From the NCBI GenBank assembly GCA_003694545.1, contig RFKD01000051.1, forward strand, positions 4,505 through 68,504: a stretch of 64,000 bases of DNA, given 5' to 3'. A program made the translations under genes and the position numbers. Under the pieces are notes generated by a model. The model was not told where the DNA came from. It saw only the letters and a program-made list of their open reading frames with translations, and did not search any database. This DNA comes from Candidatus Parcubacteria bacterium (GTDB lineage Bacteria > Patescibacteriota > Minisyncoccia > Phycocordibacterales > UBA12088). This document shows positions 5,430-55,253 of the stretch, piece by piece; the first letter of the stretch is position 1; the number at the start of each line of letters is the position of its first letter.

Positions 5430-7637
5430 TTACGCGTGACGGCTCCGCGGTTGGTTATAGCGGTCGCGGTCGTGACGGGATTGGTCGCGATTGGGTTGAT
5501 GGGTGTGGTTGTGGTAAGGGGTGATGCCCTTGCGGCTTGCGAACTCAGGATCAGCCATTTTAATTGAGAGACTAATGCGGTCTTTTTCGTCAATTCCTTT
5601 AACTACCACCGGCACGCGTTCTCCAACCGCAAGCACATCCTCCACCTTTTCTATGCGAAACGGCGCGATTTCTGAAATATGCACCAACCCTTCAGCGTTG
5701 GGTCCGATTTTTACGAACGCGCCGAAATCAGTAAGGCGCACCACTTCTCCTTCCAAACGATCTCCAACTGCGAAAACACGCGTCAGTTCTTCTATTTCTG
5801 TTTTTGCCTTCTCCGCCGCTTCCGCTTTGCCAGCGATATATACCACGCCATCATCTTCAATGGTGATGTCGTCAACTCCCGTGCGATCTTTAATGCCGTT
5901 GATAGTTTTTCCGCCGGGGCCAATCACGAGGCCGATCATATCTTTCGGAATGGTGATAGTGATGAGGCGCGGCGCTAAGGGGGAGAGTTCTGGCCGGGGG
6001 GCGCTGATTGCCGCTTCCATAACATCCAAAATATGCGCCCGCGCTTCTTTGGCTTGCGCAAACGCTTCCGCGAGGATGGGGAGCGGGACCCCCGCTATTT
6101 TAACATCCATCTGGACGGCGGTAACGCCGTTGCGCGTTCCGGCGACCTTAAAATCCATGTCTCCATGATGGTCTTCCGGGCCTTGAATATCTGTCAGCAC
6201 AGTGTGCTTTCCTTCCCACAACATCAATCCCATCGCAATCCCCGCAACGTGGCGCGCGACAGGAACGCCGCCATCCATCAAGGCGAGCGATGAAGCGCAC
6301 ACGCTCGCCATTGAACTGGAGCCGTTGGAAGTCATCACTTCAGACACGAGACGAATAGTGTATGGGAACACCTCTTTTGGCGGGATGACGGGGAGCAGTG
6401 CCCGCTCCGCAAGAGCTCCGTGACCCACAGCGCGTCGGTTAATCCCGCCAAGACGCCCCGTTTCCCCCGTGCTATACGGGGGGAAGTTGTAGTGGTGTAT
6501 AAACCGTTTCGGGGTGCTGTGGTGCTCGATAGTGTCTAAGATTTGCGCGTCGCCGGGTCCGCCGAGAGTGAGCGCGCTAAACACATGGGTGTCGCCGCGG
6601 TAAAAAATGCCAGCCCCGTGCGTCATTGGCGCGATGAGGTTAGTGTAGGCTTTGATAGGGCGCAGTTCGTTGTGTTTTCGGCCGTCGGGACGTTTCCCCT
6701 CCTCCACCACGAGCCGGTGCAACGTTTTGTCGGCTTCTTCTTCAAACAACGCTCCCGCACAGCGCGCTTCCTCAGGAGGAAGCGCGCTGTGCGCTTCTTT
6801 GACCCATTCCTCCTTACACGCGTTGAGCGCGTGGGACCCAGGAGTGTTTGTCATCAGCGCTGCCTCCAATTTTCCTGGAGCAAGGATGCTTTGCGTGAAG
6901 AGCCGTCGCAGCGCGTCGGGGTAATCGGCGAAGCTCAAGGCGCGCTTTTGCTTGCCGATGCGCTCGATGATGTCGTGTTGCCAAGCTTGGAGCCGCCGGT
7001 GGATCTCTTGGGCGGCCTTCATTGCTTCCAAAATTTCTTCCTCGGAAACCTCTTTTGCGCCAATCTCAATCATATTGATAACTGCGCCGTCGCCACACGC
7101 CAGCAGTTCGTAGCGGTAGTCGGCATGTTCACGCTCAGTATAAGTTGGATTCACGATGCCCGCGCCGTTGTTGGAGCCAATGCGCACCGCGCTTATTGGC
7201 CCGTTCCAAGGAATGTCGGAGGTCGCCAAAGCAAGCGAAGTGCCAATGATTCCCAACACATCAGGGTCGTCCTCATCTATGGAGAGTATGGTCACCACCA
7301 CTTGCACCTCGTTGCGCAGGCGGTGGTCAAACAGGGGGCGAATAGCTCGGTCGACCACTCGGGCGGACAGAATAGCTTCTTCCGATGGGCGTCCTTCTCG
7401 GCGCATAAAGCGCGAGCCAAGGATTTGCCCGGCCGCGTAGTATTTTTCTTCGTATTCAACTGTGAGAGGGAAAAAGTCAATTCCCTCCCGCTCTGGCCCC
7501 ATAACGGCGGTAACCAACACAACGCTGTTGCCGTAGCGCAACACCACCGATCCGTTCGCCTTTGCGGCAAGGTCGGGGAACGAGGCGGTGAGCGTTTTTC
7601 CGCCGATATCAATGGTAAAAGTAGGGGCGTTTTCCAT
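5430..7637 (-). CDS. pnp: polynucleotide phosphorylase (PNPase)
   Basis: Two RNase PH domains (the mid-protein motif FMRREGRPSEEAILSARVVDRAIRPLF and the second-core GGINRRAVGHGALAERAL), a KH domain and an S1 domain (EGEVVRLTDFGAFVKIGPNAEGLVHISE). Start placed at the MENAPTFTIDIGGKTLT Met. Confidence 0.95.
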   Translation of the reverse strand: MENAPTFTIDIGGKTLTASFPDLAAKANGSVVLRYGNSVVLVTAVMGPEREGIDFFPLTVEYEEKYYAAGQILGSRFMRREGRPSEEAILSARVVDRAIRPLFDHRLRNEVQVVVTILSIDEDDPDVLGIIGTSLALATSDIPWNGPISAVRIGSNNGAGIVNPTYTEREHADYRYELLACGDGAVINMIEIGAKEVSEEEILEAMKAAQEIHRRLQAWQHDIIERIGKQKRALSFADYPDALRRLFTQSILAPGKLEAALMTNTPGSHALNACKEEWVKEAHSALPPEEARCAGALFEEEADKTLHRLVVEEGKRPDGRKHNELRPIKAYTNLIAPMTHGAGIFYRGDTHVFSALTLGGPGDAQILDTIEHHSTPKRFIHHYNFPPYSTGETGRLGGINRRAVGHGALAERALLPVIPPKEVFPYTIRLVSEVMTSNGSSSMASVCASSLALMDGGVPVARHVAGIAMGLMLWEGKHTVLTDIQGPEDHHGDMDFKVAGTRNGVTAVQMDVKIAGVPLPILAEAFAQAKEARAHILDVMEAAISAPRPELSPLAPRLITITIPKDMIGLVIGPGGKTINGIKDRTGVDDITIEDDGVVYIAGKAEAAEKAKTEIEELTRVFAVGDRLEGEVVRLTDFGAFVKIGPNAEGLVHISEIAPFRIEKVEDVLAVGERVPVVVKGIDEKDRISLSIKMADPEFASRKGITPYHNHTHQPNRDQSRHDRDRYNQPRSRHA

Positions 7638-7791
7638 AGGGTTGTCATTACGCGTCAAAAGGGTAAACTCCAAAAACACCGCACAAGCCGATCGCGGCGT
7701 CTTACTGACTTAGGGTAGCAAATTACGCGCGAATCGGCTACTCGCACAACAGCAAGGCGCTGTTGCTTGCACGCATGAGGAAGAAGGTTGT

Positions 7792-11464: not shown

Positions 11465-12949
11465 CTACACCACGCCGTATTTTTTCAAAATCTCCTTTGT
11501 GGCGGCCTCTTCTGCCTCTTCTTTGGTTTTTTTGCCTTTTTCTCCAATCTGCCGCAGTTCTTCCTCTGGGAGAGCAAGGAGTTCTTGAGCTCGCGCGAGA
11601 AGGTACTCTCTGTTGTTTTTGGAAGGGTCTTCAAGTATCTCTTCGAGCAGAGCATGGAGCACCCAGCCAATCGCAGGCCCTGGTTTCACGTGAAAATGTT
11701 CCATAAGATTCGTCCCGTTGATAGCCAACATACTCACGGAAATCGGATCGCGCAGCGCCTGCTCCACCATTGCGGTGTATTTACGAAGCCGAAACGGCTG
11801 CTCTTTGGGTTTGCCGCTTCCAATGCGGTCGCACATACGCAGGTGGAGAAGATCCCAAATGTTTTCTTTTCCTACACGCTGGATGATGCGCCGAACGGCA
11901 GAGAGGGTAATTTTCTCGGGGTCAGCGAAAAACATATGCCAACGGACAAGCGCCACAACCTTATCCCGCAAGTCGTGGGGAAACTTTAGGCGGTCAAGCG
12001 CGCGTTTCGTGATCGCCGCCCCAACCACCTCATGGTTGTAGAATGTGTGGTCTCCCAAGGCCGGATCGTATGCTTTTGTGGCGGGTTTGCCGATGTCGTG
12101 GAGAAGGGCGGCAAGACGCACCGCAAGAGAAAAGTTTCGGTCGGCGGCATGCTGTACGGAGCGCACAAGATGCTCAAACACATCGTAAATATGGGAGCGG
12201 TTTTGCCCAACATCATAGGTTTCCTCAAGCTCGGGTAACACATAGCGCATAAGGCCGGTTTGGCGCAGCAACGCCATGCCAACTGCCGGGCTGGGGGAGG
12301 CAATAATGCGGATAAACTCATCACGAATTCGCTCGCGAGAAATGTGCTCAAGCAGGGGGGCGTTTTGCGCAATAGCAGTGAGCGTTTCCCCTTCAATGGC
12401 AAGGTTCAATTCAGCGGCAAGCCGAATGGCTCTCAACATCCTTAGTGCGTCTTCAGAAAACCGCTGATTTGGATCTCCTACCGCTCGGATAATTTCCCGG
12501 CGTAAGTCCTCCAATCCGCCAAAGGTATCTATTAAATTTTCACGTGAAATAGAGTACGCCATCGCGTTGATGGTGAAATCGCGCCGCGCGAGGTCTTCTT
12601 CAAGGGAATCCGTAAAAGACACCTCTAAAGGACGCCGAAAATCTGCGTAAGTCCCCTCTGTCCTATACGGCGTTACCTCCACCACTTCGGTGGCTGGGTT
12701 GCCGCTCTCTGTCACCACACCCACGGTTCCAAATTCGTTGTTGTAGTAGGTGTGAGGAAAAAGCCGCTGAATTTTTTCCGGCGTGGCGTTCGTGGTGATG
12801 TCCCAGTCTTTCGGCTCTTTCCCCAAGAGAAGATCCCGCACGCATCCCCCAACGAGGTAGGCTTCGTAACCAGCCTTTTCAAGAGCTTGGGCGACTTCTT
12901 TCACCTCTGGGGGTATGTTGGCAGGAGGAATGGTGGAGGCGGCACGCAT
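11465..12949 (-). CDS. cca: CCA tRNA nucleotidyltransferase / poly(A) polymerase family protein with HD domain
   Basis: GGCVRDLLLGKEPKDWDITTNATPEKI (Pol-beta-like NTase head), RDFTINAMAY, and an HD domain (LLHDIGKPAT). Confidence 0.88.
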   Translation of the reverse strand: MRAASTIPPANIPPEVKEVAQALEKAGYEAYLVGGCVRDLLLGKEPKDWDITTNATPEKIQRLFPHTYYNNEFGTVGVVTESGNPATEVVEVTPYRTEGTYADFRRPLEVSFTDSLEEDLARRDFTINAMAYSISRENLIDTFGGLEDLRREIIRAVGDPNQRFSEDALRMLRAIRLAAELNLAIEGETLTAIAQNAPLLEHISRERIRDEFIRIIASPSPAVGMALLRQTGLMRYVLPELEETYDVGQNRSHIYDVFEHLVRSVQHAADRNFSLAVRLAALLHDIGKPATKAYDPALGDHTFYNHEVVGAAITKRALDRLKFPHDLRDKVVALVRWHMFFADPEKITLSAVRRIIQRVGKENIWDLLHLRMCDRIGSGKPKEQPFRLRKYTAMVEQALRDPISVSMLAINGTNLMEHFHVKPGPAIGWVLHALLEEILEDPSKNNREYLLARAQELLALPEEELRQIGEKGKKTKEEAEEAATKEILKKYGVV

Positions 12950-22289: not shown

Positions 22290-22363
22290 CGGGGTGTGGT
22301 GTAATGGTAGCACGCATGCTTTGGGTGCATGTAGTCCGAGTTCGAGTCTCGGCACCCCGACCA
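22290..22363 (+). tRNA. tRNA-Pro (anticodon TGG), CCA encoded
   Basis: CGGGGTG TG GTGT AATGGTA GCAC G CATGC TTTGGGT GCATG TAGT CCGAG TTCGAGT CTCGG CACCCCG A CCA. The AT-rich island begins immediately downstream. Confidence 0.9.
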
Positions 22364-22485
22364 GATGCAACTTTTATTAATTCTGCGAGAAGATGTTTGC
22401 TCGCTCCGCCTCGCTAACGCTCGGCTCCGCTCGCATTTTTCCTTATATTTCGAGATTAAATCAAAGGGCTTTTGAAAATCAAAAA

Positions 22486-22782
22486 TCAGTTTTCTATCCA
22501 GCAGGCGGCGGTTCGTTCCAATTTTCCCGCAACAGATTTTATTTCATCAAAAGCGTCTGACGAAGCCAGTTCTTCAGCGTGATGAGCGGATAAAATCCAC
22601 TCTTTCAATGGTTCAATCCAATTGTTTCCCTTTCGCCCAAAATCAGCCTTTCTTTTGTTAAGGTCTGTTTTTGTTTTAATGAGCTCGTCTTTTTTGGCAA
22701 GATACGTTTCTTTTTCAATACTGCCGTCCAAAAAGGCGTTGACCAATCTATTCAACTTTTGCTGGGTTTCCTCTTGTCCCAA
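22486..22782 (-). pseudogene. 5'-truncated remnant of a large serine recombinase (C-terminal coiled-coil segment only)
   Basis: NRLVNAFLDGSIEKETYLAKKDELIKTKTDLNKRK resembles the C-terminal coiled-coil of large serine recombinases (..AYLDGxIsKEEYlxKKxELexexxeL..). There is no catalytic N-domain. It lies 120 nt from the tRNA-Pro 3' end. Confidence 0.4.
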
Positions 22783-22822
22783 TCTTCCCGTGCGCGGGCG
22801 ACAAAGTGGAACTCCCTATTTG

Positions 22823-22851
22823 TTGACTAAAGCAAAAATAATTCATATACT
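22823..22851 (+). promoter_or_regulatory. sigma70-like promoter for the XRE gene and the downstream defence operon (TTGACT-17 nt-TATACT)
   Basis: -35 TTGACT at 22823-22828, a 17-nt spacer, and -10 TATACT at 22846-22851, about 55 nt upstream of the XRE start. The region is AT-rich, so a chance match is possible. Confidence 0.35.
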
Positions 22852-22907
22852 ACCAATATAAGCAAGAACTTGAGTATACATAACTATATTAATAAAGTTT
22901 TATAATT

Positions 22908-23117
22908 ATGCCAAAGAGTAAAGCAACTATCGGCGAGAATATACGGAAGTACCGCCTGCAAAAAAATATGTCGCAAGACCGCCTGTCTAAATTGGCGGAT
23001 GTCGCTTTTCATACCATCGTCAAGATAGAATCCGGCGAGACGCCAAATCCTACAATAGAAACGGTCAGGAAAATCGCCGCCGCGCTTGGCGTGAGTATTG
23101 ATGATTTAATGAAGTAA
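22908..23117 (+). CDS. XRE-family helix-turn-helix transcriptional regulator (Cro/C1-type)
   Basis: IGENIRKYRLQKNMSQDRLSKLADVAFHTIVKIESGETPNPTIETVRKIAAALGVSIDDL, a canonical HTH_XRE. Its stop is 2 nt before the start of the next gene. Confidence 0.85.
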   Translation: MPKSKATIGENIRKYRLQKNMSQDRLSKLADVAFHTIVKIESGETPNPTIETVRKIAAALGVSIDDLMK

Positions 23118-23119
23118 CT

Positions 23120-26100
23120 ATGACGAACCATTCCGATCTCACATTTATCACAAACGAAGAAGGACAGAATCTCCTCGAGCGTTTCAGGGTGTTGATAAAA
23201 GACACCGAGTTCTTTGATGTCCTTGTAGGCTATTTCTATACCAGCGGCTTTTATACCCTATATAAATCATTGGAGAAAACTAAAAAAATCAGGATTCTTA
23301 TCGGCATCAGCACCAACCGGCAGACACTTGATCTGATAGAAAAGGCAGAGCAACAGGAGCTTACATTCTCCCATGCGGAGACGAAGGAACACTTTTCCAA
23401 TCTGCTTGCTGGAGAAATGGAGAGCGCGGAGGACAGCAGAAAAGTAGAAGAAGGGGTTACAAAGTTTATGGAGTGGTTGCAAAACGGAAAACTCGAAATC
23501 AGGGCGTATCCGACAGAAAATATCCACGCCAAGCTTTACATTATGACTTTTGTAGAGAGCGACAGAGACGTCGGGAGGGTCATCACAGGTTCAAGCAATT
23601 TTACCTACTCAGGCTTAGTGGAAAATCTTGAGTTCAATGTGGAGTTGAAAAACCGCGCTGATTATGAATTCGCCAAAGAAAGATTTGAGGAGCTTTGGAA
23701 AGAAGCTGTTGACGTCAGCGAAAAATACATTCAGACGATTCAGGAAAAAACCTGGCTCAACCCGAATGTAACCCCCTATGAGCTATACCTAAAATTTCTG
23801 TACGAATATTTTAAAGACGAGTTAAGCCAAACCGATGAAATGTTTTGTCGCTACTTACCCCACGACTTCAGGAAACTTGAATATCAGGAGCAAGCGGTTT
23901 TAAACGCCAAAAAAATCCTCGAGGAATACGGTGGTGTATTCATTTCGGATGTTGTGGGTTTGGGAAAGACTTACATTTCAGCCATGATCGCCGGTCAGCT
24001 TGACGGCAGAACGCTGGTCATCGCTCCGCCGGTTTTGCTTGACAAAACAAATCCCGGCTCATGGCCAAATGTGTTTTCCGATTTTCGGATTTCGGCGGAC
24101 TTTGAGTCCATTGGAAAATTAGACGATATCCTGCGCAGAGGAACAGAAAAATACAAGAACATTATTATAGATGAAGCCCATCGATTCCGCACGGAAACCA
24201 ACATCACCTACGAAAAATTAGCCGAAATCTGTCGAGGCAAGCGAGTGATTCTGGTCACAGCCACGCCGTACAACAATTCCCCAAAAGACATCTTAAGCCA
24301 GATAAAGCTGTTCCAAAAAGCAAGGAGAAGCACGATTCCCAATCTGCCTGATTTGGAAGGCTTCTTTGGAGGATTGGAGAGGAAGCTTAAAAAGCTCGAC
24401 AGGCAAAAAGATTACTCCGAATACATCAGAGTAGTTAAAGAGAATGCCAAAGAAATCCGCGAGAAGGTGCTCAAGTATTTGATGGTGCGTCGCACCAGAA
24501 CTGAAATCTTAAAATACTTTCCCGATGATTTGGCTAAGCAAAATCTCAAGTTTCCGGATGTCGATGATCCAATGCCGCTTTTTTACCAGCTTAATGAAGA
24601 AGAAGACAAAATATTCAACACAACCATAGAGATGATTACCAAAAAATTTACTTACGCTCGTTACACGCCACTTTTGCCAAAATACTATAAAGGTTCAATT
24701 GACCTTTTTGAGGAACAATCCCAGAAGAACATGGGTAAGTTCATGAAGATTCTTTTGGTGAAACGGCTTGAGAGCAGCTTCTTTGCTTTCAAGCAATCAA
24801 TTGGCCGCTTTATCTCCTCTTATGAGATGTTTATCAAAGAGTTCAAAAAGGGACATGTTTATATCAGTAAAAAATACGCGAACAAGATTTTTGAATATCT
24901 GGAAAATGATGATGACGAAGCCATCCAAAAGCTGATCGATGGGGGTAAAGCCGAAAGATACGACAGCGAGGATTTTACCGAAGACTTTATCAAAGATCTG
25001 GAAAGCGATCTCACTATATTGACCACTATCTTATCTCTCTGGCAAAACATTAAACGAGATCCCAAACTACTCACGTTCCTTGATGAACTTTCAAAAAATA
25101 AAATACTCCAAAATAAGCTCATCGTTTTTACCGAATCAAGAGAAACCGCCGAATATCTGGCAAGAAATATCAATAATAAATTTGGAGACATCACGCTTTG
25201 TTTTACTGGCAGATCAGAAGAAGCCACCCGCGATAAAGTGATCGATAATTTTGATGCAAAAGTGCGCCATCCCAAAGACGATTATCGCATTCTGGTTTCG
25301 ACCGAGGTCTTGTCAGAGGGCGTCAACCTGCATCGCTCCAATGTGGTCGTAAATTATGACATACCCTGGAATCCAACCCGCATGATGCAAAGGGTCGGAC
25401 GCATCAACAGGATCGATACGACGTTCGACAAAATCTATACTTTTAATTTTTTCCCAACCAAACAATCGAACGACCAGATCAAACTCAAAGAAGCGGCAGA
25501 GGCTAAAATCAATGCTTTTCTTACATTGCTAGGCGGCGATGCGGCGTTGTTAACTGAAGGCGAACCGGTTGACTCACATGAGCTTTTCAATCGGTTAATC
25601 TCCAAAAAGACCCTGATTGGCGAAGACGAAACCGAAGAAAGCGAGCTTAAGTATTTGCAAGTGATTAAAAATATTCGGGACAAAAACCCTGACCTATTTG
25701 AAAAAATCAAGCGTTTGCCCAAGAAAGTCCGGACAGCAAAAAAGGATGTTGGACATCGAGATTCACTGGTAACTTATTTCAGGCGTGGCAAGCTACAGAA
25801 ATTTTTTATAGCTGATCAAAGCTCGGTTGCCAGGGAACTTGATTTTATAAGTGCTGCACGTATACTCGCAAGTGCCAGTGATGATAAAAAACAAAAACTG
25901 CCGGAAAAGTTTTTTGACCTTCTGGATAAAAATAAAGAGGCTTTTCTTCGTGCCACTACCGAAGAGATGGTTGAACCCGTAAAAAAACGTGGTCATGACA
26001 GCGCCGCACAATTGCTCAAAATTCTCAAAGCTACAGTGGGGAACACACAACCGTTCACGGACGAGCAGGAGCAGTATATTAAACAGGTCATCGTCCAGTT

Positions 26101-26308
26101 GGAGGAAGGCGGTTTACCTAGGCAAACAGTCAAAGAAACCCTCAAGGCGCTGAATGAACTCAAGCAGGATTTAATTAACCCGTTTAAAGTGCTGGCTACA
26201 CTGCAAAGCCACATCCCCGAGCAATTTTTACGACAGCACTATGCAGAGCAGAATCCGCGTTCAGTCGGGAAAAGGGAAGTGATTCTATCAATGTATTTAA
26301 CAGGATAA
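23120..26308 (+). CDS. PLD-family (HKD) nuclease domain fused to an SNF2-family helicase (putative restriction / DNA-translocase subunit)
   Basis: N-terminal PLD-like region (KKIRILIGIST...NIHAKLYIMTF...VITGSSNFTYSGL: HxK...GSxN). SNF2 motifs I GLGKTYIS, II IIIDEAHRFR, III VILVTATPYNN, and helicase-C motifs LVSTEVLSEGVNL and NPTRMMQRVGRINR. Confidence 0.85.
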   Translation: MTNHSDLTFITNEEGQNLLERFRVLIKDTEFFDVLVGYFYTSGFYTLYKSLEKTKKIRILIGISTNRQTLDLIEKAEQQELTFSHAETKEHFSNLLAGEMESAEDSRKVEEGVTKFMEWLQNGKLEIRAYPTENIHAKLYIMTFVESDRDVGRVITGSSNFTYSGLVENLEFNVELKNRADYEFAKERFEELWKEAVDVSEKYIQTIQEKTWLNPNVTPYELYLKFLYEYFKDELSQTDEMFCRYLPHDFRKLEYQEQAVLNAKKILEEYGGVFISDVVGLGKTYISAMIAGQLDGRTLVIAPPVLLDKTNPGSWPNVFSDFRISADFESIGKLDDILRRGTEKYKNIIIDEAHRFRTETNITYEKLAEICRGKRVILVTATPYNNSPKDILSQIKLFQKARRSTIPNLPDLEGFFGGLERKLKKLDRQKDYSEYIRVVKENAKEIREKVLKYLMVRRTRTEILKYFPDDLAKQNLKFPDVDDPMPLFYQLNEEEDKIFNTTIEMITKKFTYARYTPLLPKYYKGSIDLFEEQSQKNMGKFMKILLVKRLESSFFAFKQSIGRFISSYEMFIKEFKKGHVYISKKYANKIFEYLENDDDEAIQKLIDGGKAERYDSEDFTEDFIKDLESDLTILTTILSLWQNIKRDPKLLTFLDELSKNKILQNKLIVFTESRETAEYLARNINNKFGDITLCFTGRSEEATRDKVIDNFDAKVRHPKDDYRILVSTEVLSEGVNLHRSNVVVNYDIPWNPTRMMQRVGRINRIDTTFDKIYTFNFFPTKQSNDQIKLKEAAEAKINAFLTLLGGDAALLTEGEPVDSHELFNRLISKKTLIGEDETEESELKYLQVIKNIRDKNPDLFEKIKRLPKKVRTAKKDVGHRDSLVTYFRRGKLQKFFIADQSSVARELDFISAARILASASDDKKQKLPEKFFDLLDKNKEAFLRATTEEMVEPVKKRGHDSAAQLLKILKATVGNTQPFTDEQEQYIKQVIVQLEEGGLPRQTVKETLKALNELKQDLINPFKVLATLQSHIPEQFLRQHYAEQNPRSVGKREVILSMYLTG

Positions 26309-26312
26309 TAAT

Positions 26313-29147
26313 ATGGACAGACAACAAGCTCAAAAGCTGATTAAAGAAACTTTTGAAAATCCTTTTGATAAAGGCAAATTTGCCCGTTTTATAAAAAATC
26401 TCCTTAACCGAGTTGAAGACGCCCCTTTCACGTACCAAGGCAATTATATCCCCGAAGCTTACCAACCTTACATCTCATCGTTGGAGCGTCTTTACAAATA
26501 TTCAGGCGGAGAACATAAGATTGACATACTTGTCGTTCAACTGAAAAAACAAACTTCGCTGGAACGCGCCCGTACCATGCAGCGCAATTTCATTGCCCGG
26601 TACTTAAACGGCAGCCGTGGCGGTGAAATGAAAGATGCCGCGCTGGTTGCCTTTGTTTCTCCTGGTGAAGTGGACTGGCGTTTTTCGCTGATTACAATGG
26701 ACTACCGTTTTGAAGAAACAAAAGACGGAAAAGTAAAAGTCAAAGAAGAATTTACTCCGGCAAGGCGCTGGTCGTTTCTGGTAGGAAGCAACGAAGCCAG
26801 CCACACCGCCCAGAGCCGACTGGTGAACATTCTCGTCGATGATGAGCACCATCCCACACTCCAGCAACTGGAAGAAGCCTTCAACATTGAAACTGTTACC
26901 AAAGAGTTCTTCATCAAATACCGCGAGATGTTTATCCGTACGAAGGAAGAACTGGATACAGTGGTGGCACGAGACGCCAAAATCAAAGCCGATTTTGATG
27001 CCAAAGGTATTGACACGGTCAACTTTGCCAAAAAGCTGCTCGGCCAAATCGTCTTTCTTTATTTTCTGCAAAAGAAAGGCTGGTTTGGCGTCAAGCGGGA
27101 CGCCAAATGGGGTACGGGCTCCAAACATTTTTTACGAGAACTTTTCGAAGGCAAATATGGCAGCTATAACAATTTTTTCAACGATATTCTTGAACCTCTC
27201 TTTTATGAAGCGTTGCGCATCGACCGCAGTCATGACGACCATTATTACAGCCGGTTCAATTGTAAGATTCCGTTTCTGAACGGAGGGCTGTTTGATCCTA
27301 TCGGCAATTACGACTGGGTACACACGGACATCAACATACCGAACGAGCTTTTTTCCAACACAGTAAAAACCAAAGAAGGCGATATTGGTAACGGTATTTT
27401 AGATATCTTTGACCGCTACAACTTTACGGTCAAGGAAGATGAGCCTTTGGAAAAAGAGGTCGCCATCGATCCGGAGCTTTTGGGTAAAACGTATGAAAAA
27501 TTCAACGCTATCCGTCCGGATAATTTTGAAGAATACAAGGCGGCTTTAAAGAGCGGGCAAAAGGGTGCTGAAAACAAGTTCAACAAGACATTTGGTGTTT
27601 ACTACACCCCGCGGGAAATCGTGCATTACATGTGCAAGCAGAGCCTGATTAATTATCTTTTCACTAAGGCGGAAGAAGAGGGGATTTCTAACGATATTAA
27701 AAAGCAAGACATCGAAGACCTGATCGAAATCGGCGAGATGATTACCGAACACGAGGCAACCGCTCTTAACAAAGAGGATAAAATTAGAAACGGCATCCAG
27801 AAATCCACGAAATACGAGAGGCTTTCATCCGACAGTATACGAAAAAATGCCAAAATCATAGATAACTGGCTGGCTGACATTACCGTGTGCGATCCGGCAG
27901 TGGGTTCCGGCGCCTTCCCGGTGGGCATGATGCATGAAATTGTCAAGGCTCGTAATCTCCTTTCCACATTTATTCAAGACCCTAACCGCACCATTTATAC
28001 CTTCAAACGCGAATGCATCGAAAAATCCCTCTATGGCGTGGACATCGACCCCGGCGCGGTGGAGATTGCCAAACTGCGGCTCTGGCTGTCGCTGGTGGTG
28101 GATGAGGATGATATCCGCCAGATCAAGCCTCTGCCGAATTTGGATTATAAAATTGTGTGCGGAAATTCGCTGCTGGGTGTGGAGAAGAATTTGTTTAATA
28201 ACCAACTGTTTGCCGAACTGGAACGACTGAAGCCGCTTTACTTTCATGAAACCAATCCCACAAAAAAGCAGGAATACAAAAAGGAGATTGATGACTTGAT
28301 TAGCCAAATTACCAACGGACATACGGAATTTGATTTTGAGGTCTATTTTTCCGAGGTGTTTCATAAGAAGGGCGGGTTTGATGTGGTGATTGGAAATCCG
28401 CCGTACATCCAACTTCAAAAAGCGATTGATGATAAGCAAAAATACGCTGATCTCTATAAAAATGCATGCTACGAGACTTTTGATAGGTGCGGAGATATTT
28501 ACTGCCTCTTTTATGAAAAAGGCATACACATTCTCCGACCCAATGGCGTTTTGTGTTTTATCACCAGCAATAAATGGATGCGGGCAGGCTACGGCAAATC
28601 TCTCCGAAGATTTTTCCTCAAGCATAATCCCAGACTTTTGATTGATTTAGGTCCCGGCGTTTTTGAAAGCGCGACCGTGGATACCAATATTCTCATAATG
28701 CAAAAATCCGAGGAAAAACCCGCCCCGGTGTGTCTCGATGCTGTTACCTTAACTGAAGAGGCAAAAGAATCGGACATTGCTTTGTATATTAAGAAGAACA
28801 GAAAACGCTTGACGGCTCTGAGCGAGAATGCTTGGTTTATTGGCAGCGCTGCTGAACAGCAACTCAAAGAAAAAATCGAACGCATAGGTAAACCACTGAA
28901 AGATTGGGATGTGAATATTTATTATGGTATTAAAACCGGCCTAAACGAAGCCTTTATCATCACTACTGAAAAGCGTAATGAAATACTAGCAAACTGCAAA
29001 GATGAAGAAGAAAGAAAACGCACCGAAGCCATCATCAAACCTATTTTACGAGGCAGAGATATCAAGCGATATTATCAAGCGATATTATTACGAATGGGCA
29101 GGGTTTTGGGTGATAGTAATTCCAGCAGGCTGGACAAATGTAAATAA
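26313..29147 (+). CDS. gamma-class N6-adenine DNA methyltransferase (Eco57I/PglX/type IIG-like), interrupted near its C-terminus by a frameshift
   Basis: FGVYYTPREIVHYMCKQSL (motif X), CDPAVGSGAFPVG (motif I), VIGNPPYIQLQ (motif IV NPPY), and a long N-terminal domain typical of PglX/type IIG enzymes. The reading frame ends KPILRGRDIKRYYQAILLRMG... just after the ILRGRDIKRY TaqI_C hallmark. Confidence 0.85.
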   Translation: MDRQQAQKLIKETFENPFDKGKFARFIKNLLNRVEDAPFTYQGNYIPEAYQPYISSLERLYKYSGGEHKIDILVVQLKKQTSLERARTMQRNFIARYLNGSRGGEMKDAALVAFVSPGEVDWRFSLITMDYRFEETKDGKVKVKEEFTPARRWSFLVGSNEASHTAQSRLVNILVDDEHHPTLQQLEEAFNIETVTKEFFIKYREMFIRTKEELDTVVARDAKIKADFDAKGIDTVNFAKKLLGQIVFLYFLQKKGWFGVKRDAKWGTGSKHFLRELFEGKYGSYNNFFNDILEPLFYEALRIDRSHDDHYYSRFNCKIPFLNGGLFDPIGNYDWVHTDINIPNELFSNTVKTKEGDIGNGILDIFDRYNFTVKEDEPLEKEVAIDPELLGKTYEKFNAIRPDNFEEYKAALKSGQKGAENKFNKTFGVYYTPREIVHYMCKQSLINYLFTKAEEEGISNDIKKQDIEDLIEIGEMITEHEATALNKEDKIRNGIQKSTKYERLSSDSIRKNAKIIDNWLADITVCDPAVGSGAFPVGMMHEIVKARNLLSTFIQDPNRTIYTFKRECIEKSLYGVDIDPGAVEIAKLRLWLSLVVDEDDIRQIKPLPNLDYKIVCGNSLLGVEKNLFNNQLFAELERLKPLYFHETNPTKKQEYKKEIDDLISQITNGHTEFDFEVYFSEVFHKKGGFDVVIGNPPYIQLQKAIDDKQKYADLYKNACYETFDRCGDIYCLFYEKGIHILRPNGVLCFITSNKWMRAGYGKSLRRFFLKHNPRLLIDLGPGVFESATVDTNILIMQKSEEKPAPVCLDAVTLTEEAKESDIALYIKKNRKRLTALSENAWFIGSAAEQQLKEKIERIGKPLKDWDVNIYYGIKTGLNEAFIITTEKRNEILANCKDEEERKRTEAIIKPILRGRDIKRYYQAILLRMGRVLGDSNSSRLDKCK

Positions 29148-29718
29148 AGGTGAAGTCACCGCAGAAAAATTTATAAACATGAAGTTTCCTGCATTAATGC
29201 AGTATTTGAAAATATATGAAGAAAAAGCCAGAAAACGCGATGATCAAGGTGATTATTGGTGGGAATTACGCCATTGTGCCTACTACCCCGAATTTGAGAA
29301 AGAGAAGGTGGTGTGGAGTGATATTGCCTCAGAACCAACTGTTACCGTTTTACCTAAGGGATTATATTTCAATAATACCGTTTACATGGTTTCTTCAAGA
29401 ACCCCACGCTATTTTGCCGGTATTTTAAATTCTCGCGTGATAAAATGGTATTTCTCTAAAATAGCAACGGATCTAGGAGAAAAAGGTCGGCGCTTTTTTA
29501 AAATCTTTGTTGAGGTTATGCCTTTGATACCCATCACCCCTGCCAACCAGCCCATTGTTCAGCAAATAGAGGCATTGGTAGATAAAATCCTTGCAGAAAA
29601 GAAACAAAACCCGCAAGCAGACACCAAAGAATACGAACACCAGATTGACCAGCTCGTCTATAAACTCTACGATCTGACACCGGAGGAAATTAAGATTGTG
29701 GAAAATTCACGATCGTGA
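29002..29718 (+). CDS. C-terminal TaqI_C-like target-recognition segment of the methyltransferase, in the +1 frame (continuation after the 13-bp duplication)
   Basis: The +1 frame gives DIIKRYYYEWAGFWVIVIPAGWTNV...WWELRHCAYYPEF...YFAGILNSRVIKWYF, which matches the TaqI_C / type IIG specificity-domain pattern (WxELR..YY, LNS.v..wy). Confidence 0.7.
   Translation: MKKKENAPKPSSNLFYEAEISSDIIKRYYYEWAGFWVIVIPAGWTNVNKGEVTAEKFINMKFPALMQYLKIYEEKARKRDDQGDYWWELRHCAYYPEFEKEKVVWSDIASEPTVTVLPKGLYFNNTVYMVSSRTPRYFAGILNSRVIKWYFSKIATDLGEKGRRFFKIFVEVMPLIPITPANQPIVQQIEALVDKILAEKKQNPQADTKEYEHQIDQLVYKLYDLTPEEIKIVENSRS
29064..29089 (+). repeat. perfect 13-bp tandem duplication (caagcgatattat x2) causing a +1 frameshift inside the methyltransferase
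   Basis: Read directly from the sequence: 29064-29076 equals 29077-29089. Removing one copy restores ...ILRGRDIKRYYYEWAGFWVIVIPAGW..., the expected TaqI_C continuation. Confidence 0.9.
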
Positions 29719-31967
29719 ATATGATCACTCGCGTAATAAAAATTAAAAACTGTGCGTCATTTGTTGATTTTGTACCGGGTGCCGACCTGCCGGCATTTAG
29801 GAAATACAACTTAATTTACGGATGGAATGGATCGGGTAAAACCAATTTTTCACGAGTATTACGTTCTTTTGAATTACGGGAAAATTATTATGCTGACTTG
29901 AATAATCCAACAGAATTTGAATTTCAACTTGATAATGGTACAGCAATAAGTCAACAAGATTTAACGGTTTTCCCAAATATTCGAGTGTTTAACAAGGATT
30001 TTATCAATGAGAGCGTTTTTTGTACCGGCGGACCAAAGCCGATTTTCTTTCTGAGTAAAGAAAGTAAGGAAGACCAAGAAAAAATCATGCAACTAGGGAA
30101 TCAATTACGGAAATTGAGAGAAGATTTAGATTTTAAAAGAGCACTCCTTGATAAAGCTAAAATAAGAAAAGAAAAAATGCTTTCTGATAAAGCGCGTGAT
30201 ATTAAAACCGCTCTCACAACATCTCGTAGTGATAAGTACAGAAATTATGAACGGCCAAATCTAGAAAAAGCAATTCAGGACAACGTGAATGAACTTAAAA
30301 GCAATGTCGATAAATATAAATTGGCAGGGGATAGAGTTGCCATTCTCCAAAAGACAATACAACAAACGACTAAGCCAAAAGTTGAATCTTTGGCATTCCC
30401 AGATTTTGATATTTCTGAAACTGTAAGTGAGGTAAAAAAAGTTTTACAGACTACTGTTACTTCTCATATTATTGAGAGTCTTAAATTGGATGAGATGCTG
30501 AATAAGTGGGTAGAGCATGGGCTTTCTATTCACAAGGAAAGAGGGCTGAAAAATTGCGCTTTTTGTAATCAAGTAATCCCGCATCATAGATTTTCGGAAC
30601 TAGAACAACACTTTAACGATGATTACCAAAGGCTTATTGAGGAGCTGAGTAGCTTAAAGCAAACACTTGAAGGTAAAAAAATTTCAATTTCTTTTCCAGA
30701 CGCTTCAAGTTTTTATGACGATTTAATAGAAGAGTATTTAAACGCCAAAAAAGAAGCTGAAGAAATAGTTAAGAAATTTAATCAAAACATAGATTCTCTT
30801 ATTTCTGCTCTTGTGCAGAAGGAGCAAAGGCCATTTTCAAAAGTAGATTTAGAAGAATGGAAACAAGTTGAAATAAGGCCATTTGAAAATATAAACATTA
30901 TTATTTCAAAGCATAACGAAAGGTCAGACAATTTTGATAAACAAATAGATGAAAGTAAACACATTTTAGAGATGCACTATATTGCAGATTTTATCCATTC
31001 TTATTTTGAACAGATGGATGAAATAGAAAAACTAGAGAAAGAAGTTTCGGAATTAGAGAATGAAATAAAAACTAACGAGACGAAAGAAAACGAGTTAAAA
31101 AACTCACTCATAAGTCATCGCATTCCCGCTAATCGGATTAACGAAGACTTGAAGCATTTTTTGGGACGTGATGATATTCGCCTAGTTGCTACCGATAAGG
31201 AGGAAGGTTATCAGATTTTCCGTAACGGAACGCTTGCAAAAGATTTAAGCGAGGCCGAAAAAACTGCATTGGCGCTCGTATATTTTCTGACAAAAATACA
31301 CGAGAAAGGGTTTGACTTGAAAAATGGTGTGATTGTTATGGATGATCCGGTTTCAAGCTTTGATTCTAATTCAATTTTTCAAGCATTTGGGTTTATCAAA
31401 GAGTCAATCAAAGAGGCAAAACAGATTTTTATTTTGACACATCACTTTGACTTTTTTAGACAAGTGAAAAATTGGTTTTCGTATTACAAGGAAGATGAAC
31501 GAGAATTCTTTATGATGGTATGCGGCAAAGAAGATTCAGTGAGAAAGTCCCGAATTGCAACAATCGACAAATTACTGATTGGCTATGAATCCGAATACCA
31601 CTTTTTGTTTAGCATTTTGTACAGATTTGCGAAAAATAATGAAGTACAATTGGAAAACGCATATCCAATTCCAAATATTGCGCGTAAATTTCTTGAGAGT
31701 TTTTTGGCTTTCAGAGTACCTGTTTTAGCAAACGGACGACAAAAAGAGCCGAACTTGTACCATAGATTGGAAAAAATTGATTTTGATAAAAAAAAGAAGG
31801 AACGTATTCTCCGGTTTATTGAAACTCACTCCCATCCGCGATACGAGTCTGGAGTACAAGATTTTGACATGACTATTTTGGGAGAGACGAAAGAAATCGT
31901 GAATGATTTACTTGCTTTAGTAGAGCACGAAGACAAAAAACACTTTGAATTTTTAGTGAAAAGTTAG
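29715..31967 (+). CDS. RloC/PrrC-like AAA_13 family ATPase (restriction-linked anticodon-nuclease-type protein) with coiled-coil CxxC zinc-hook
   Basis: Walker A NLIYGWNGSGKTNFSRVL at the N-terminus. A roughly 400-aa K/E-rich coiled-coil contains NCAFCNQVIPHH (CxxC). ABC-signature-like LSEAEKTALALVYFL, Walker B/D-loop VIVMDDPVSSFDSNS, H-loop IFILTHHFDF, and a C-terminal R/E/H-rich segment (KKERILRFIETHSHPRYE). GTG at 29715 overlaps the upstream stop (GTGA); an alternative ATG is at 29721. Confidence 0.75.
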   Translation: MNMITRVIKIKNCASFVDFVPGADLPAFRKYNLIYGWNGSGKTNFSRVLRSFELRENYYADLNNPTEFEFQLDNGTAISQQDLTVFPNIRVFNKDFINESVFCTGGPKPIFFLSKESKEDQEKIMQLGNQLRKLREDLDFKRALLDKAKIRKEKMLSDKARDIKTALTTSRSDKYRNYERPNLEKAIQDNVNELKSNVDKYKLAGDRVAILQKTIQQTTKPKVESLAFPDFDISETVSEVKKVLQTTVTSHIIESLKLDEMLNKWVEHGLSIHKERGLKNCAFCNQVIPHHRFSELEQHFNDDYQRLIEELSSLKQTLEGKKISISFPDASSFYDDLIEEYLNAKKEAEEIVKKFNQNIDSLISALVQKEQRPFSKVDLEEWKQVEIRPFENINIIISKHNERSDNFDKQIDESKHILEMHYIADFIHSYFEQMDEIEKLEKEVSELENEIKTNETKENELKNSLISHRIPANRINEDLKHFLGRDDIRLVATDKEEGYQIFRNGTLAKDLSEAEKTALALVYFLTKIHEKGFDLKNGVIVMDDPVSSFDSNSIFQAFGFIKESIKEAKQIFILTHHFDFFRQVKNWFSYYKEDEREFFMMVCGKEDSVRKSRIATIDKLLIGYESEYHFLFSILYRFAKNNEVQLENAYPIPNIARKFLESFLAFRVPVLANGRQKEPNLYHRLEKIDFDKKKKERILRFIETHSHPRYESGVQDFDMTILGETKEIVNDLLALVEHEDKKHFEFLVKS

Positions 31968-32416
31968 TGGAAAGTGTTACCCAACTCGTTTGAGAATCTT
32001 TTTAAGAGTTTCTGTTGTCTCCCGAAAACCCGGGCGAAGCCCGAAGGCGAGTGGGCAAAAAGAAAAGGGGGAATGGGGGAAATGAATTTTTGCCTGCTCG
32101 CCAATACCGCGCCGCAGGCGCGGCAGGGGTGGGAAGCGGCTCGTCTCTGCTCAAGCCAGAGAAACAAAGCCCGCAAAGCGCGTTTCCTTAATTGAAAAAG
32201 AGTTTTGCGCGCGCCCGTTAAAAGAAAAAGAAATTGTTGCGTGCTTTACTTGCCGCCGTCAGGCGGCGAGCCGCTGGGCGGGTTCTGCGCCCGTCAGGGC
32301 GCAGATTGTCGCTCAAAGAAAGTTCGAGCGGCGTTCAGTAATTGCGACTAAGGGAATGAAAGAGAGGTGTTGCAAGTATTGCTTTATTCACTCTTCACAA
32401 CAGGGGGGTCAAACGG

Positions 32417-53720: not shown

Positions 53721-55253
53721 TTAGCGCGCGTACTCCACGATGCGGTTTTCTCGGATCACATGGACTTTAATTTCGCCAGGGTAGCGCAGTTCATCTTCAA
53801 TACGCTTGGCGATGTTGCGCGCTAGTGTCCGCGCGCCGACATCTGAAACAGCTTCCGGCTGGACAAATACACGGACTTCCCGCCCCGCAGAAAGAGCGTA
53901 CGCCTTTTGCACCCCCTCAAACGAGGTGGCAATCGCCTCAAGATCCTCCAAGCGCTTAATGTACTGCTCGACGCTATCACGCCGCGCGCCGGGCCTCCCT
54001 CCGGAAATGGCGTCAGCCACCTGCACGATGACCGACTCGACGGTTTCGTAGGGGTATTCTTCGTGGTGCGCTTGCATTGCTTTGATAATGCGCTCGTCTT
54101 CGCCAAATTTCATCAAGATTTTCCTGCCAATTTCCACATGGGACCCTTGCACCTCGTGGTCTAGCGCTTTTCCGATGTCGTGCACCAACCCTGCAGCTTT
54201 CGCGATTTGCACATCCGCCCCCAATTCTTCAGCCAGCATTCCTGCTAAAAGCGCGACTTCCACCGAATGTTGGAGCACATTTTGTCCGTAGCTCGTTCGG
54301 AAATACAGTCGCCCGAGTATCATCAGGGTTTTCGGGTTTAGATTAAACACACCCGCCTCGTACGCGGCCTCCTCCCCTTTTTGTTTAATGATCTTATTGA
54401 TTTCTTCTTTCGCTTTTTCAACCACCTCCTCGATTCGCGCGGGTTGGATGCGCCCGTCGAGAATCAAATTTTCCAAAGCGACGCGGGCAATTTGGCGGCG
54501 TATTGGGTCAAACGATGAGATCATTATTGTTCCAGGCGCGTCATCAATCACCACTTCCACGCCGGTGGCACGCTCGAACGCCTTAATATTTCTCCCTTCC
54601 TTTCCAATAATTTTCCCCTTGATGTCATCGGAAGGTATGGGGACAACCGTTGACATAACATCTGGCGCAACAGAGTTGCCGAGGCGGTGAATAACGGAAG
54701 TAAGGATCTCCTGCGCTTTGCGCTCAAAGCGCTCCTCCCCCTCTTGCGCCAATTTATAGAGACGCTTCGCGATATCTTCCTCGTATTCTCGTTCTATTTG
54801 TGCGTAGAGTTCCTTGAGAGCCTCATCGCGCGTCATTCCAGCGACTCGCTCGAGCGCTATCTCCATTTCCTCTTGCGCTTTGCGCAACGACGCTCGGTCA
54901 GCCTCGAGCGCCTCTCGCTCTTGGGTGAGCGTTTTTTTTGCAGCTTCATGTTCGGCAAGGCGCTTGTCGAGCGCTTCTTCGCGCGCCAACAAGCGCTCTT
55001 CCAACTTTTGGACACTACGTTCTCGCTCAGCGATAGTCTCGAGCCGCTCATCAATAATGCGTTGCGCCTCCGTTTCCGCGCGCTCAACAATCTTGGAAGC
55101 CTCTTCCTTTGCTTCCAAGAGGCGCTGTTTAATTTCAAGCTCCATTGACCCGCGCTTGGAAAGCGCGATAGCCCAGCGGAGCACATAGCCAACCACCCCT
55201 CCTACGAGGAGCGCTCCGAACATAGCAAGGAGGATGGTAAAAGACATACGCAA
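53721..55253 (-). CDS. rny: ribonuclease Y
   Basis: N-terminal TM helix, long coiled-coil, KH domain (GKIIGKEGRNIKAFERATGVEVVIDD), and HD domain (GLVHDIGKALDHEVQGSHVEIG). Confidence 0.92.
   Translation of the reverse strand: MRMSFTILLAMFGALLVGGVVGYVLRWAIALSKRGSMELEIKQRLLEAKEEASKIVERAETEAQRIIDERLETIAERERSVQKLEERLLAREEALDKRLAEHEAAKKTLTQEREALEADRASLRKAQEEMEIALERVAGMTRDEALKELYAQIEREYEEDIAKRLYKLAQEGEERFERKAQEILTSVIHRLGNSVAPDVMSTVVPIPSDDIKGKIIGKEGRNIKAFERATGVEVVIDDAPGTIMISSFDPIRRQIARVALENLILDGRIQPARIEEVVEKAKEEINKIIKQKGEEAAYEAGVFNLNPKTLMILGRLYFRTSYGQNVLQHSVEVALLAGMLAEELGADVQIAKAAGLVHDIGKALDHEVQGSHVEIGRKILMKFGEDERIIKAMQAHHEEYPYETVESVIVQVADAISGGRPGARRDSVEQYIKRLEDLEAIATSFEGVQKAYALSAGREVRVFVQPEAVSDVGARTLARNIAKRIEDELRYPGEIKVHVIRENRIVEYAR

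Follow-up and report, generated by a model that had tools for sequence, protein, structure and literature searches.

A probable RloC-family anticodon nuclease encoded at the end of a restriction-modification operon in a Candidatus Parcubacteria genome

We analysed a gene at positions 29721-31967 (+ strand) of a 64,000-nucleotide stretch of DNA from a Candidatus Parcubacteria bacterium (assembly GCA_003694545.1, contig RFKD01000051.1, positions 4,505 to 68,504), which is referred to as the window at its full length. Very probably the gene encodes an RloC-family anticodon nuclease (ACNase) that consists of an ATP-binding cassette (ABC) head of the Rad50/SMC type, an insert with a CAFC zinc hook and a C-terminal HEPN domain, and that was horizontally acquired as the last gene of a restriction-modification (R-M) operon. 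RloC, by which bacteria probably halt protein synthesis under attack by phages, is widespread; only two of the enzymes have been studied, and the natural trigger is debated. The protein is an ordinary new member of this family, which is also labelled AAA_13, 'wobble nucleotide-excising tRNase' in COG and PDC-S06 in PADLOC. The understanding of RloC is not changed by it. What is added is a documented member, located on a defence island in a genome of the candidate phyla radiation (Parcubacteria), and a testable coupling to restriction-made DNA ends. The operon pairs RloC with a PLD-SNF2 nuclease-helicase and a Type IIG-like methylase, an R-M type not previously discussed with RloC, and the combination recurs in at least four lineages.

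Translation from the ATG at 29721 yielded a protein of 748 amino acids, which is terminated by TAG at 31965-31967. A sequence-only reading of the window, made before this analysis, had given the gene as 29715-31967. This frame exists as the maximal open reading frame (ORF); it starts with GTG, comprises 750 amino acids and overlaps the stop codon of the upstream gene. We keep the GTG as an alternative start, while the N-termini of homologues and the genes publicly called in three independent assemblies favour the ATG. Residue numbers refer to the 748-residue protein, to which two have to be added for the longer form. The protein was 100% identical to P0001, labelled hypothetical in a metagenome-assembled genome (MAG) of Candidatus Parcubacteria. 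It contains a total of five cysteines, and its size falls within the range of 658-897 amino acids given in the paper that defined RloC. The Pfam family AAA_13 matched residues 13-733 with an E-value of 3.6e-143, and PADLOC PDC-S06 was the best model with a match to 3-749 and an E-value of 1.3e-213. Both matches are far beyond chance.

Candidates for RloC have been screened on ABC-ATPase motifs, a CXXC motif and the ACNase triad (Davidov and Kaufmann 2008). All three were found in the window protein. A tblastn search of a plasmid collection returned as best match an ORF of 792 amino acids, counted from the first Met, on the megaplasmid of Cupriavidus (Ralstonia) metallidurans CH34. Because this ORF contains the fragments printed for Q3RRA9_RALME (Supplementary Fig. 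1, Davidov and Kaufmann 2008), we equated it with their orthologue no. 37 (YP_587691, 792 amino acids, Table S1). BLASTP aligned the window protein with the CH34 orthologue over the full length with 32% identity and an E-value of 2e-125. The alignment was collinear, with Walker A, CxxC, signature, Walker B, H-loop, YESEYH, IAR.LES and RF..THSH all in register. For RloC of Geobacillus kaustophilus (GkaRloC) the query rows were rebuilt from the same Supplementary Fig. 1, with some noise from optical character recognition (OCR). Its hook segment aligned to residues 228-377 with 30% identity over 155 amino acids (E = 1e-12), a match which spans ...WV.EGL..HK....CAFC..I....LD/E.HF... and a downstream SFY motif; the zinc-hook counterpart in GkaRloC reads ...WVREGLGLHKGLECAFCGNKI...LDRHF. 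The earlier description of the product as an RloC-like AAA_13 ATPase was thus borne out by the AAA_13 match, the three screened features, the CH34 alignment and the match to the GkaRloC hook, and the alignment to RloC that had been suggested as a check did reveal a nuclease motif in the C-terminal domain.

Conservation was counted in an alignment of 67 homologues, which also served as input for an AlphaFold2 model with a mean predicted local distance difference test score of 85.6. The features of the protein lie on the + strand. The model shows three parts, the first of which is a beta-rich N-terminal lobe with Walker A, GWNGSGKT, at residues 34-41 (29820-29843). G34, K40 and T41 are invariant, and the position agrees with the extreme N-terminal Walker A of the sequence-only reading. 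The residue following GKT is Asn as opposed to the Arg typical of PrrC. A second ATPase lobe carries signature, Walker B, D-loop and H-loop. These motifs had been expected about 500 residues past Walker A, and the signature indeed begins 475 residues past it. The stretch previously labelled 'Q-loop/signature-like' is the ABC signature (C-loop) LSEAEK at residues 509-514 (31245-31262), which corresponds to LSKGE in EcoPrrC; the Q-loop part of that label had to be dropped. Walker B and the D-loop form VIVMDDPVSSFD at residues 537-548 (31329-31364), in which D541, D542, S546 and D548 are invariant in the same pattern as D215 D216 ... SSLD222 of EcoPrrC. The H-loop FILTHH occupies residues 570-575 (31428-31445) with an invariant H574, comparable to KFIITTH251 of EcoPrrC. 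In sum, the ABC-ATPase motifs GWNGSGKT, LSEAEK, VIVMDD, VSSFD and LTHH are all present and are invariant in the clade save for an Ala in the signature, where the family has Gly.

The ATPase domain is split by an insert of about 370 residues (115-483; 30063-31169), which is nearly all helix in the AlphaFold2 model. A 51-residue helix leading outward (115-165) and a 59-residue helix leading back (405-463) enclose a multi-helix apical region. The only CxxC of the protein, CAFC at residues 279-282 (30555-30566), lies in a loop that links helices 258-274 and 288-297, close to the middle of the insert. In the surrounding zinc-hook region WVEHGLSIHKERGLKNCAFCNQVIPHHRFSELEQHF (30507-30614) W263, G267 and H297 are invariant, and C279 and C282 were each found in 67/67 homologues. 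A single central CxxC within a long helical segment, as read from the sequence before, is therefore also what the model displays.

The C-terminal domain, residues ~615-748 (31563-31964), is predicted to adopt the alpha-helical HEPN fold. RloC proteins share the motif Arg-X3-Glu-X36-52-His, often with a Ser preceding the His (Davidov and Kaufmann 2008). The equivalent residues are R320, E324 and H356 in PrrC and R692, E696 and H737 in GkaRloC, and mutation of any residue of the triad abolishes ACNase activity and toxicity. The window protein has the full triad as R655-X3-E659-X45-S704-H705. Its Arg and Glu belong to R655-K-F-L-E659 (31683-31697), which aligns to IARRLLES of the CH34 orthologue, while the catalytic Ser-His terminates an Rx6H motif of the HEPN type, R698-FIETHS-H705 (RFIETHSH, 31812-31835), where R698 and H705 are the equivalents of R349 and H356 of EcoPrrC. 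R655, S704 and H705 were conserved in 67/67 homologues each and E659 in 66/67, with a single Asp. R698, which pairs with H705 in the Rx6H motif, was conserved in 56/67. Likewise H627 in YESEYHFLF, the equivalent of H295 of PrrC, was present in 62/67 homologues. H295, R349 and N352 of PrrC have been reported to be conserved in RloC, and R349 is essential in PrrC. With the triad aligned and the HEPN fold predicted, the C-terminal anticodon-nuclease region of the sequence-only reading was confirmed at this level. Its proposal that the cluster KKERILRFIETHSHPRYESG holds the Arg-Glu-His triad was right in part: the cluster contains the catalytic His (H705, or H707 in the 750-residue numbering) as well as the HEPN Arg R698, but the Arg and Glu of the triad are situated 45 residues upstream in PNIARKFLESF (R657 and E661 in the 750-residue numbering). 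The isolated domain, searched against PADLOC and Pfam at E-values up to 10, matched AAA_13 and PDC-S06 only and neither PrrC nor a named HEPN family.

Proteins of this architecture are numerous. Homologues with 48-72% identity are named 'wobble nucleotide-excising tRNase' by JGI. A profile of the C-terminal domain, run against 1.84 billion cluster representatives, matched 1576 clusters at E <= 1e-3, of which 253 remained at the stricter E <= 1e-30. The full-length matches almost always had 740-790 amino acids with the domain at the C-terminus. Matches of 420-460 amino acids were considered as PrrC-sized proteins and rejected, since they are N-terminally truncated RloC fragments that cover PDC-S06 positions ~300-737. 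Among species-representative genomes, relatives were spread over many phyla of bacteria; the carriers included several Patescibacteria and also a single archaeal MAG. Walker A, the central CxxC and the triad were all present in 75 of the 80 full-length relatives from these genomes. Single-sequence and profile searches of the PDB returned weak matches to Rad50/ABC heads only and no solved RloC or PrrC. In the papers found PDC-S06 is listed as a prediction only.

Several points weigh against the assignment to RloC or limit what can be derived from it. There was no clear Shine-Dalgarno sequence ahead of the ATG at 29721. The PADLOC model of PrrC matched the protein with an E-value of 3.5e-7 from Walker B to the start of the C-terminal domain and stops short of that domain, whereas in close relatives the profile runs through the nuclease part to about position 343 of 372. 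The identity to the characterised GkaRloC is ~30%, as measured over the hook segment only with an OCR-derived fragment. The position equivalent to Asn352 of PrrC is Glu in the window protein. Since the clade varies at this site and the CH34 orthologue has His there, conservation of Asn352 does not appear to be a general feature of RloC. The tRNA substrate and the excision of the wobble nucleotide would be attributed to the window protein by homology.

A further point concerns the signature. At A512 (31254-31256, codon GCC) Ala was found in all three assemblies and in this protein only. Gly occupied the equivalent position in 66/67 aligned homologues, 88/89 retrieved proteins and 71/73 genome loci with a recognisable motif (~225/229). 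The fourth position of the signature is the second Gly of LSGGQ, which contacts the gamma-phosphate across the ABC ATPase dimer. Because GkaRloC needs its ATPase for activation, the replacement of Gly by Ala could weaken the ATPase activity required to switch on the window protein. The GkaRloC ATPase mutants K44 and D572 are inactive.

From what has been published on GkaRloC and on RloC of Acinetobacter baylyi, the following course of events may be proposed. The protein would dimerise via its ATPase heads with the nuclease being latent under normal conditions. DNA, and above all DNA ends, together with ATP hydrolysis would lift a block that depends on the zinc hook. GkaRloC is activated far more strongly by linear than by circular DNA, and its switch is uncoupled by the hook mutation C291G. 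The HEPN domains would then cut the anticodon loop of the tRNA first 3' and then 5' of the wobble nucleotide, so that this nucleotide is excised; the sequence of cuts is known for GkaRloC only. Loss of the wobble nucleotide would halt translation and leave a lesion that is poorly handled by the phage repair enzymes Pnk and Rnl1. RloC would act as a second-line abortive-infection module behind the restriction system, governed by its own internal switch. As an attractive extension, DNA ends generated by the PLD-SNF2 nuclease of the operon might be the signal that activates RloC.

The RloC gene is the last of four co-directional genes at 22908-31967 that are separated by merely 2-4 bases or overlap, which bears out its earlier description as the last gene of an R-M-like operon. 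The first gene (22908-23117, +) encodes an HTH_3 regulator of the Xre/Cro type with 69 amino acids (Pfam HTH_3, E = 1.9e-15). It is present in all three assemblies and probably is a controller-like protein. The second gene (23120-26308, +) encodes a fusion of a PLD nuclease and an SNF2-SF2 helicase with 1062 amino acids. Pfam assigned PLDc_2, ResIII, SNF2-rel_dom and Helicase_C and PADLOC 'HKD+Snf2' (E = 7.7e-49); the protein displays HAK...GSSN, GLGKT at 280 and DEAH at 351 and is presumed to be the restriction motor-nuclease. The third gene (26313-29718, +) codes for a Type IIG-like N6-adenine methyltransferase/specificity protein with an Eco57I domain, an NPPY motif and a TaqI_C domain. About 500 N-terminal residues of this methylase (1-520; 26313-27870) have no Pfam domain and match the N-terminus of the PADLOC Type IIG REase-MTase model.

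The operon block has a GC content of 33-45%, with RloC being lowest at 33-36%, compared with 52-61% on both flanks. A tRNA-Pro(TGG) gene at 22290-22363 (+), detected by ARAGORN and Rfam, marks the left edge, and directly downstream of it GC drops from 52-57% to 33-47%. Because the block is low in GC relative to its flanks and starts just 3' of tRNA-Pro, we concluded that the island (window ~22400-32000) is horizontally acquired. Neither an integrase nor att-type direct repeats were found at the island. Scans for promoters and terminators did not exceed the expectation from shuffled sequence; the best promoter-like site was 22823-22851. Between tRNA-Pro and the HTH_3 gene an ORF of 98 amino acids (22486-22782, -) was called in all three assemblies and had no significant family match. 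The flanking region carries housekeeping genes of RNA metabolism, i.e. a CCA-adding enzyme with an HD domain, PNPase, RNase Y and NusA; the first three are located at 11465-12949, 5430-7679 and 53721-55253 on the - strand.

Linkage of RloC to R-M genes was surveyed in eight distinct contexts with relatives of at least 50% identity. In four of them, the window and loci L007, L005 and L011, a PLD-SNF2 gene and an Eco57I-type methylase gene precede RloC. The remaining contexts comprise a Type III res/mod pair (L008), an MmeI_N remnant (L004) and a serine recombinase only (L006 and L009). With respect to the window, the linked loci show 28-72% identity in their R-M proteins and 56-64% in RloC, so the linkage appears to go beyond co-inheritance of one cassette. 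In the window the methylase stop and the RloC start are separated by two bases, or share bases if translation begins at the GTG; in L007 there is a four-nucleotide overlap. Insertions were also seen: a vapBC toxin-antitoxin pair in L007 (5925-6537) with the order PLD-SNF2, methylase and RloC being kept, and unannotated ORFs at L011 3286-4599 and 7903-8880 and at L005 8552-10004, again with the order of the cassette preserved. Among distant relatives with 29-38% identity, neither R-M gene had a homologue within 9 kb in at least 70 of 80 cases, and a few loci had Type III-like genes; the screen covered homologues of these particular R-M genes. In the original survey eight of 72 rloC genes were located in type I or III loci; type IIS and Eco57I-related genes are further neighbours given in Table S1 (Davidov and Kaufmann 2008).

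The methylase gene of the window is broken. A frameshift splits it into two ORFs, 26313-29147 and 29002-29718, which match successive parts of one PADLOC model, REase_MTase_IIG, and the corresponding Pfam domains. The cause is a 13-bp tandem duplication, ATCAAGCGATATT, at 29060-29072 (+) within the GRDIKRY motif, and removal of one copy yields a single methylase ORF of 1130 amino acids. Two other near-identical assemblies (loci L002 and L003) encode RloC with an identical sequence and are free of the duplication; in these the methylase gene has a deletion of one nucleotide, located at window position 29378 in GCA_026004575.1 and at 27594 in GCA_039803485.1. Phase variation was rejected as an explanation, because both deletions fall into runs of two bases and not into a homopolymer tract. 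When the assemblies were aligned over 9.2 kb all three indels lay within the methylase gene, whereas the RloC gene had no differences and the PLD-SNF2 gene three substitutions. In L003 35 substitutions are clustered at 28367-29004, i.e. in 640 bp of the methylase gene, with about three in the remainder of the 9.2-kb operon. Because only eight of the 35 alter an amino acid, the cluster has the appearance of a tract acquired by recombination from a functional allele that had diverged.

The simplest reading of the lesions is a recent and recurrent loss of the methylase/specificity subunit, although the two single-nucleotide deletions are possibly assembly errors. The loss would be tolerable if the nuclease relied on the methylase subunit for targeting. 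In MANTIS a knockout of the methylase gene mtsC is non-toxic, and a similar situation would explain the tolerated frameshifts here. The three near-identical genomes with three different breaks in the methylase and an untouched RloC constitute a natural experiment. With the methylase out of frame in each of them, survival of the cell evidently does not hinge on an intact R-M partner, and the same finding argues that RloC can stay silent without one. This speaks against the earlier proposal, modelled on PrrC, that the nuclease is triggered when the co-encoded restriction machinery is disabled, since the methylase is already frameshifted in every assembly and RloC unchanged. Persistence of RloC beside a disabled R-M system fits an internally gated enzyme better than a PrrC-type trigger. 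It fits an attenuated enzyme equally well.

A more far-reaching interpretation would combine linkage and lesions. This RloC clade would be wired in cis to PLD-SNF2/Eco57I-type cassettes as a four-gene system of two layers, in which DNA ends made by the restriction motor-nuclease switch on the Rad50-like ATPase and license the cleavage of tRNA, and the three independent frameshifts of the methylase together with the unique Gly to Ala exchange in the signature would reflect selection to disarm both layers in this Parcubacteria lineage with its small genome. We regard this as unlikely in its entirety.

There is a rather low probability that the protein has the architecture of RloC and functions differently, be it as a HEPN RNase for another substrate such as mRNA or rRNA, or with a trigger in the style of PrrC, where the nuclease is held by R-M proteins and freed by an anti-restriction factor of a phage. 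HEPN RNases are known to attack tRNA, mRNA and rRNA, only two RloC enzymes are characterised, to which this clade is ~30% identical, and the deviating residue at the Asn352 position could be taken in the same sense. Moreover, R-M genes in cis, the hallmark of PrrC, were present in five of the eight contexts plus one remnant as compared to the eight of 72 reported for RloC. Yet the zinc hook, i.e. the internal switch specific to RloC, is invariant, the Arg that follows Walker A in PrrC is absent, and retention of RloC in three genomes with a truncated methylase argues against obligate silencing by an R-M complex.

A similarly small chance is assigned to decay of the whole island with RloC being an attenuated or inactive remnant kept by chance. 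Decay would agree with the methylase lesion in every assembly, with a signature Ala that is unique among ~160 relatives and with the missing integrase and att repeats; in the literature, PrrC has been described as inactivated together with its R-M system. On the other hand, the 748-codon ORF of RloC is undamaged, does not vary between the three independent assemblies and retains all catalytic residues, and the PLD-SNF2 ORF is intact, too. As the three methylase lesions differ and most of the nearby substitutions are synonymous (35 nucleotides, eight amino acids), any decay would be recent.

Finally, that the PLD-SNF2/methylase restriction system requires the protein as its third subunit, which would act not as an autonomous tRNA nuclease but as an ATPase loader or regulator like MtsA/BrxC of MANTIS/BREX or the Hma ATPase, is very improbable: the recurrent gene order in four lineages with tight spacing or overlap, R-M identities that point to more than co-inheritance and the requirement of some PLD-helicase/methylase pairs of MANTIS for ATPase partners are outweighed by the close relatives next to Type III genes or a serine recombinase without R-M genes, by the distant relatives devoid of these R-M homologues, by a conserved HEPN RNase site that would be superfluous in a loader, by the affiliation of MtsA/BrxC with the ORC/Cdc6 clade of AAA+ proteins, which is unrelated to ABC/Rad50, by the lack of matches to Hma and Gao_RL models and by an RloC that stayed unchanged despite the broken methylase. 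Thus we favor the view that the gene codes for an RloC-family anticodon nuclease.

Compared with known systems, the operon resembles MANTIS (Gao_RL) in that the neighbours of RloC recall MtsC and MtsD, an N6-adenine methyltransferase and an effector with PLD nuclease and SF2 helicase. In contrast to MANTIS the helicase is of the SNF2 type, and genes for MtsA (a BrxC-like AAA+ protein) and MtsB (DUF3870) are not part of the operon. Hma and MANTIS/Gao_RL were rejected as names for the operon, because no such model was among the PADLOC hits and MtsA/MtsB-type genes are missing. In comparison with Rad50, SbcC and SMC proteins the insert of the window protein is much shorter (~370 residues). Rad50 is devoid of the C-terminal HEPN nuclease domain predicted here, and no gene for an Mre11/SbcD partner was found in the island. 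The window protein is a member of PDC-S06, a computational label of PADLOC for a candidate family enriched in defence islands to which no function is assigned, and the present evidence equates this branch of PDC-S06 with RloC.

EcoPrrC, the tRNA-Lys anticodon nuclease of E. coli with 396 amino acids, has motifs similar to those of the window protein, i.e. LSKGE versus LSEAE, DDP.SSLD versus DDPVSSFD and KFIITTH versus QIFILTHH. The counterparts of its residues H295, R320, E324, R349 and H356 are all present, and like prrC the RloC gene of the window is embedded in an R-M operon. Yet PrrC is half the size without a coiled-coil/zinc-hook insert, nicks the tRNA once, is silenced by an R-M protein, and shows a LARP motif as well as an Arg behind Walker A; its gene invariably resides in a type Ic hsd locus. 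An identity as PrrC was rejected, because the window protein has 748 amino acids with an insert of ~370 residues as opposed to the compact ~340-416 amino acids of PrrC and continues Walker A with GKT-N instead of an Arg, and because its gene lies next to those for a PLD-SNF2 protein and an Eco57I-type methylase, with no hsdR, hsdM or hsdS found.

The CH34 orthologue, which is an RloC by its sequence listing, has near-identical motifs in the C-terminal domain, YESEYH, PNIAR(K/R)(F/L)LESFL(A/S)FRVP and RF(I/L)(E/H)THSH. It has ~40 additional residues, located in the insert and behind the H-loop, and differs in its listed flanking gene, a transcriptional regulator in place of the R-M system beside the RloC of the window. 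GkaRloC (Geobacillus kaustophilus HTA426, YP_146738, 804 amino acids) is a characterised wobble-nucleotide-excising anticodon nuclease, the gene of which adjoins a transposase and a fragment of a type I hsdR outside any intact operon. The window protein is 56 residues shorter, has a Glu-His spacing of 45 instead of 40 residues and Ala instead of Gly in the signature. However, both proteins share the order of their parts and the identical CAFC, and K44, D572 and R692-E696-H737 of GkaRloC correspond to K40, D541/D542 and R655-E659-H705 of the window protein.

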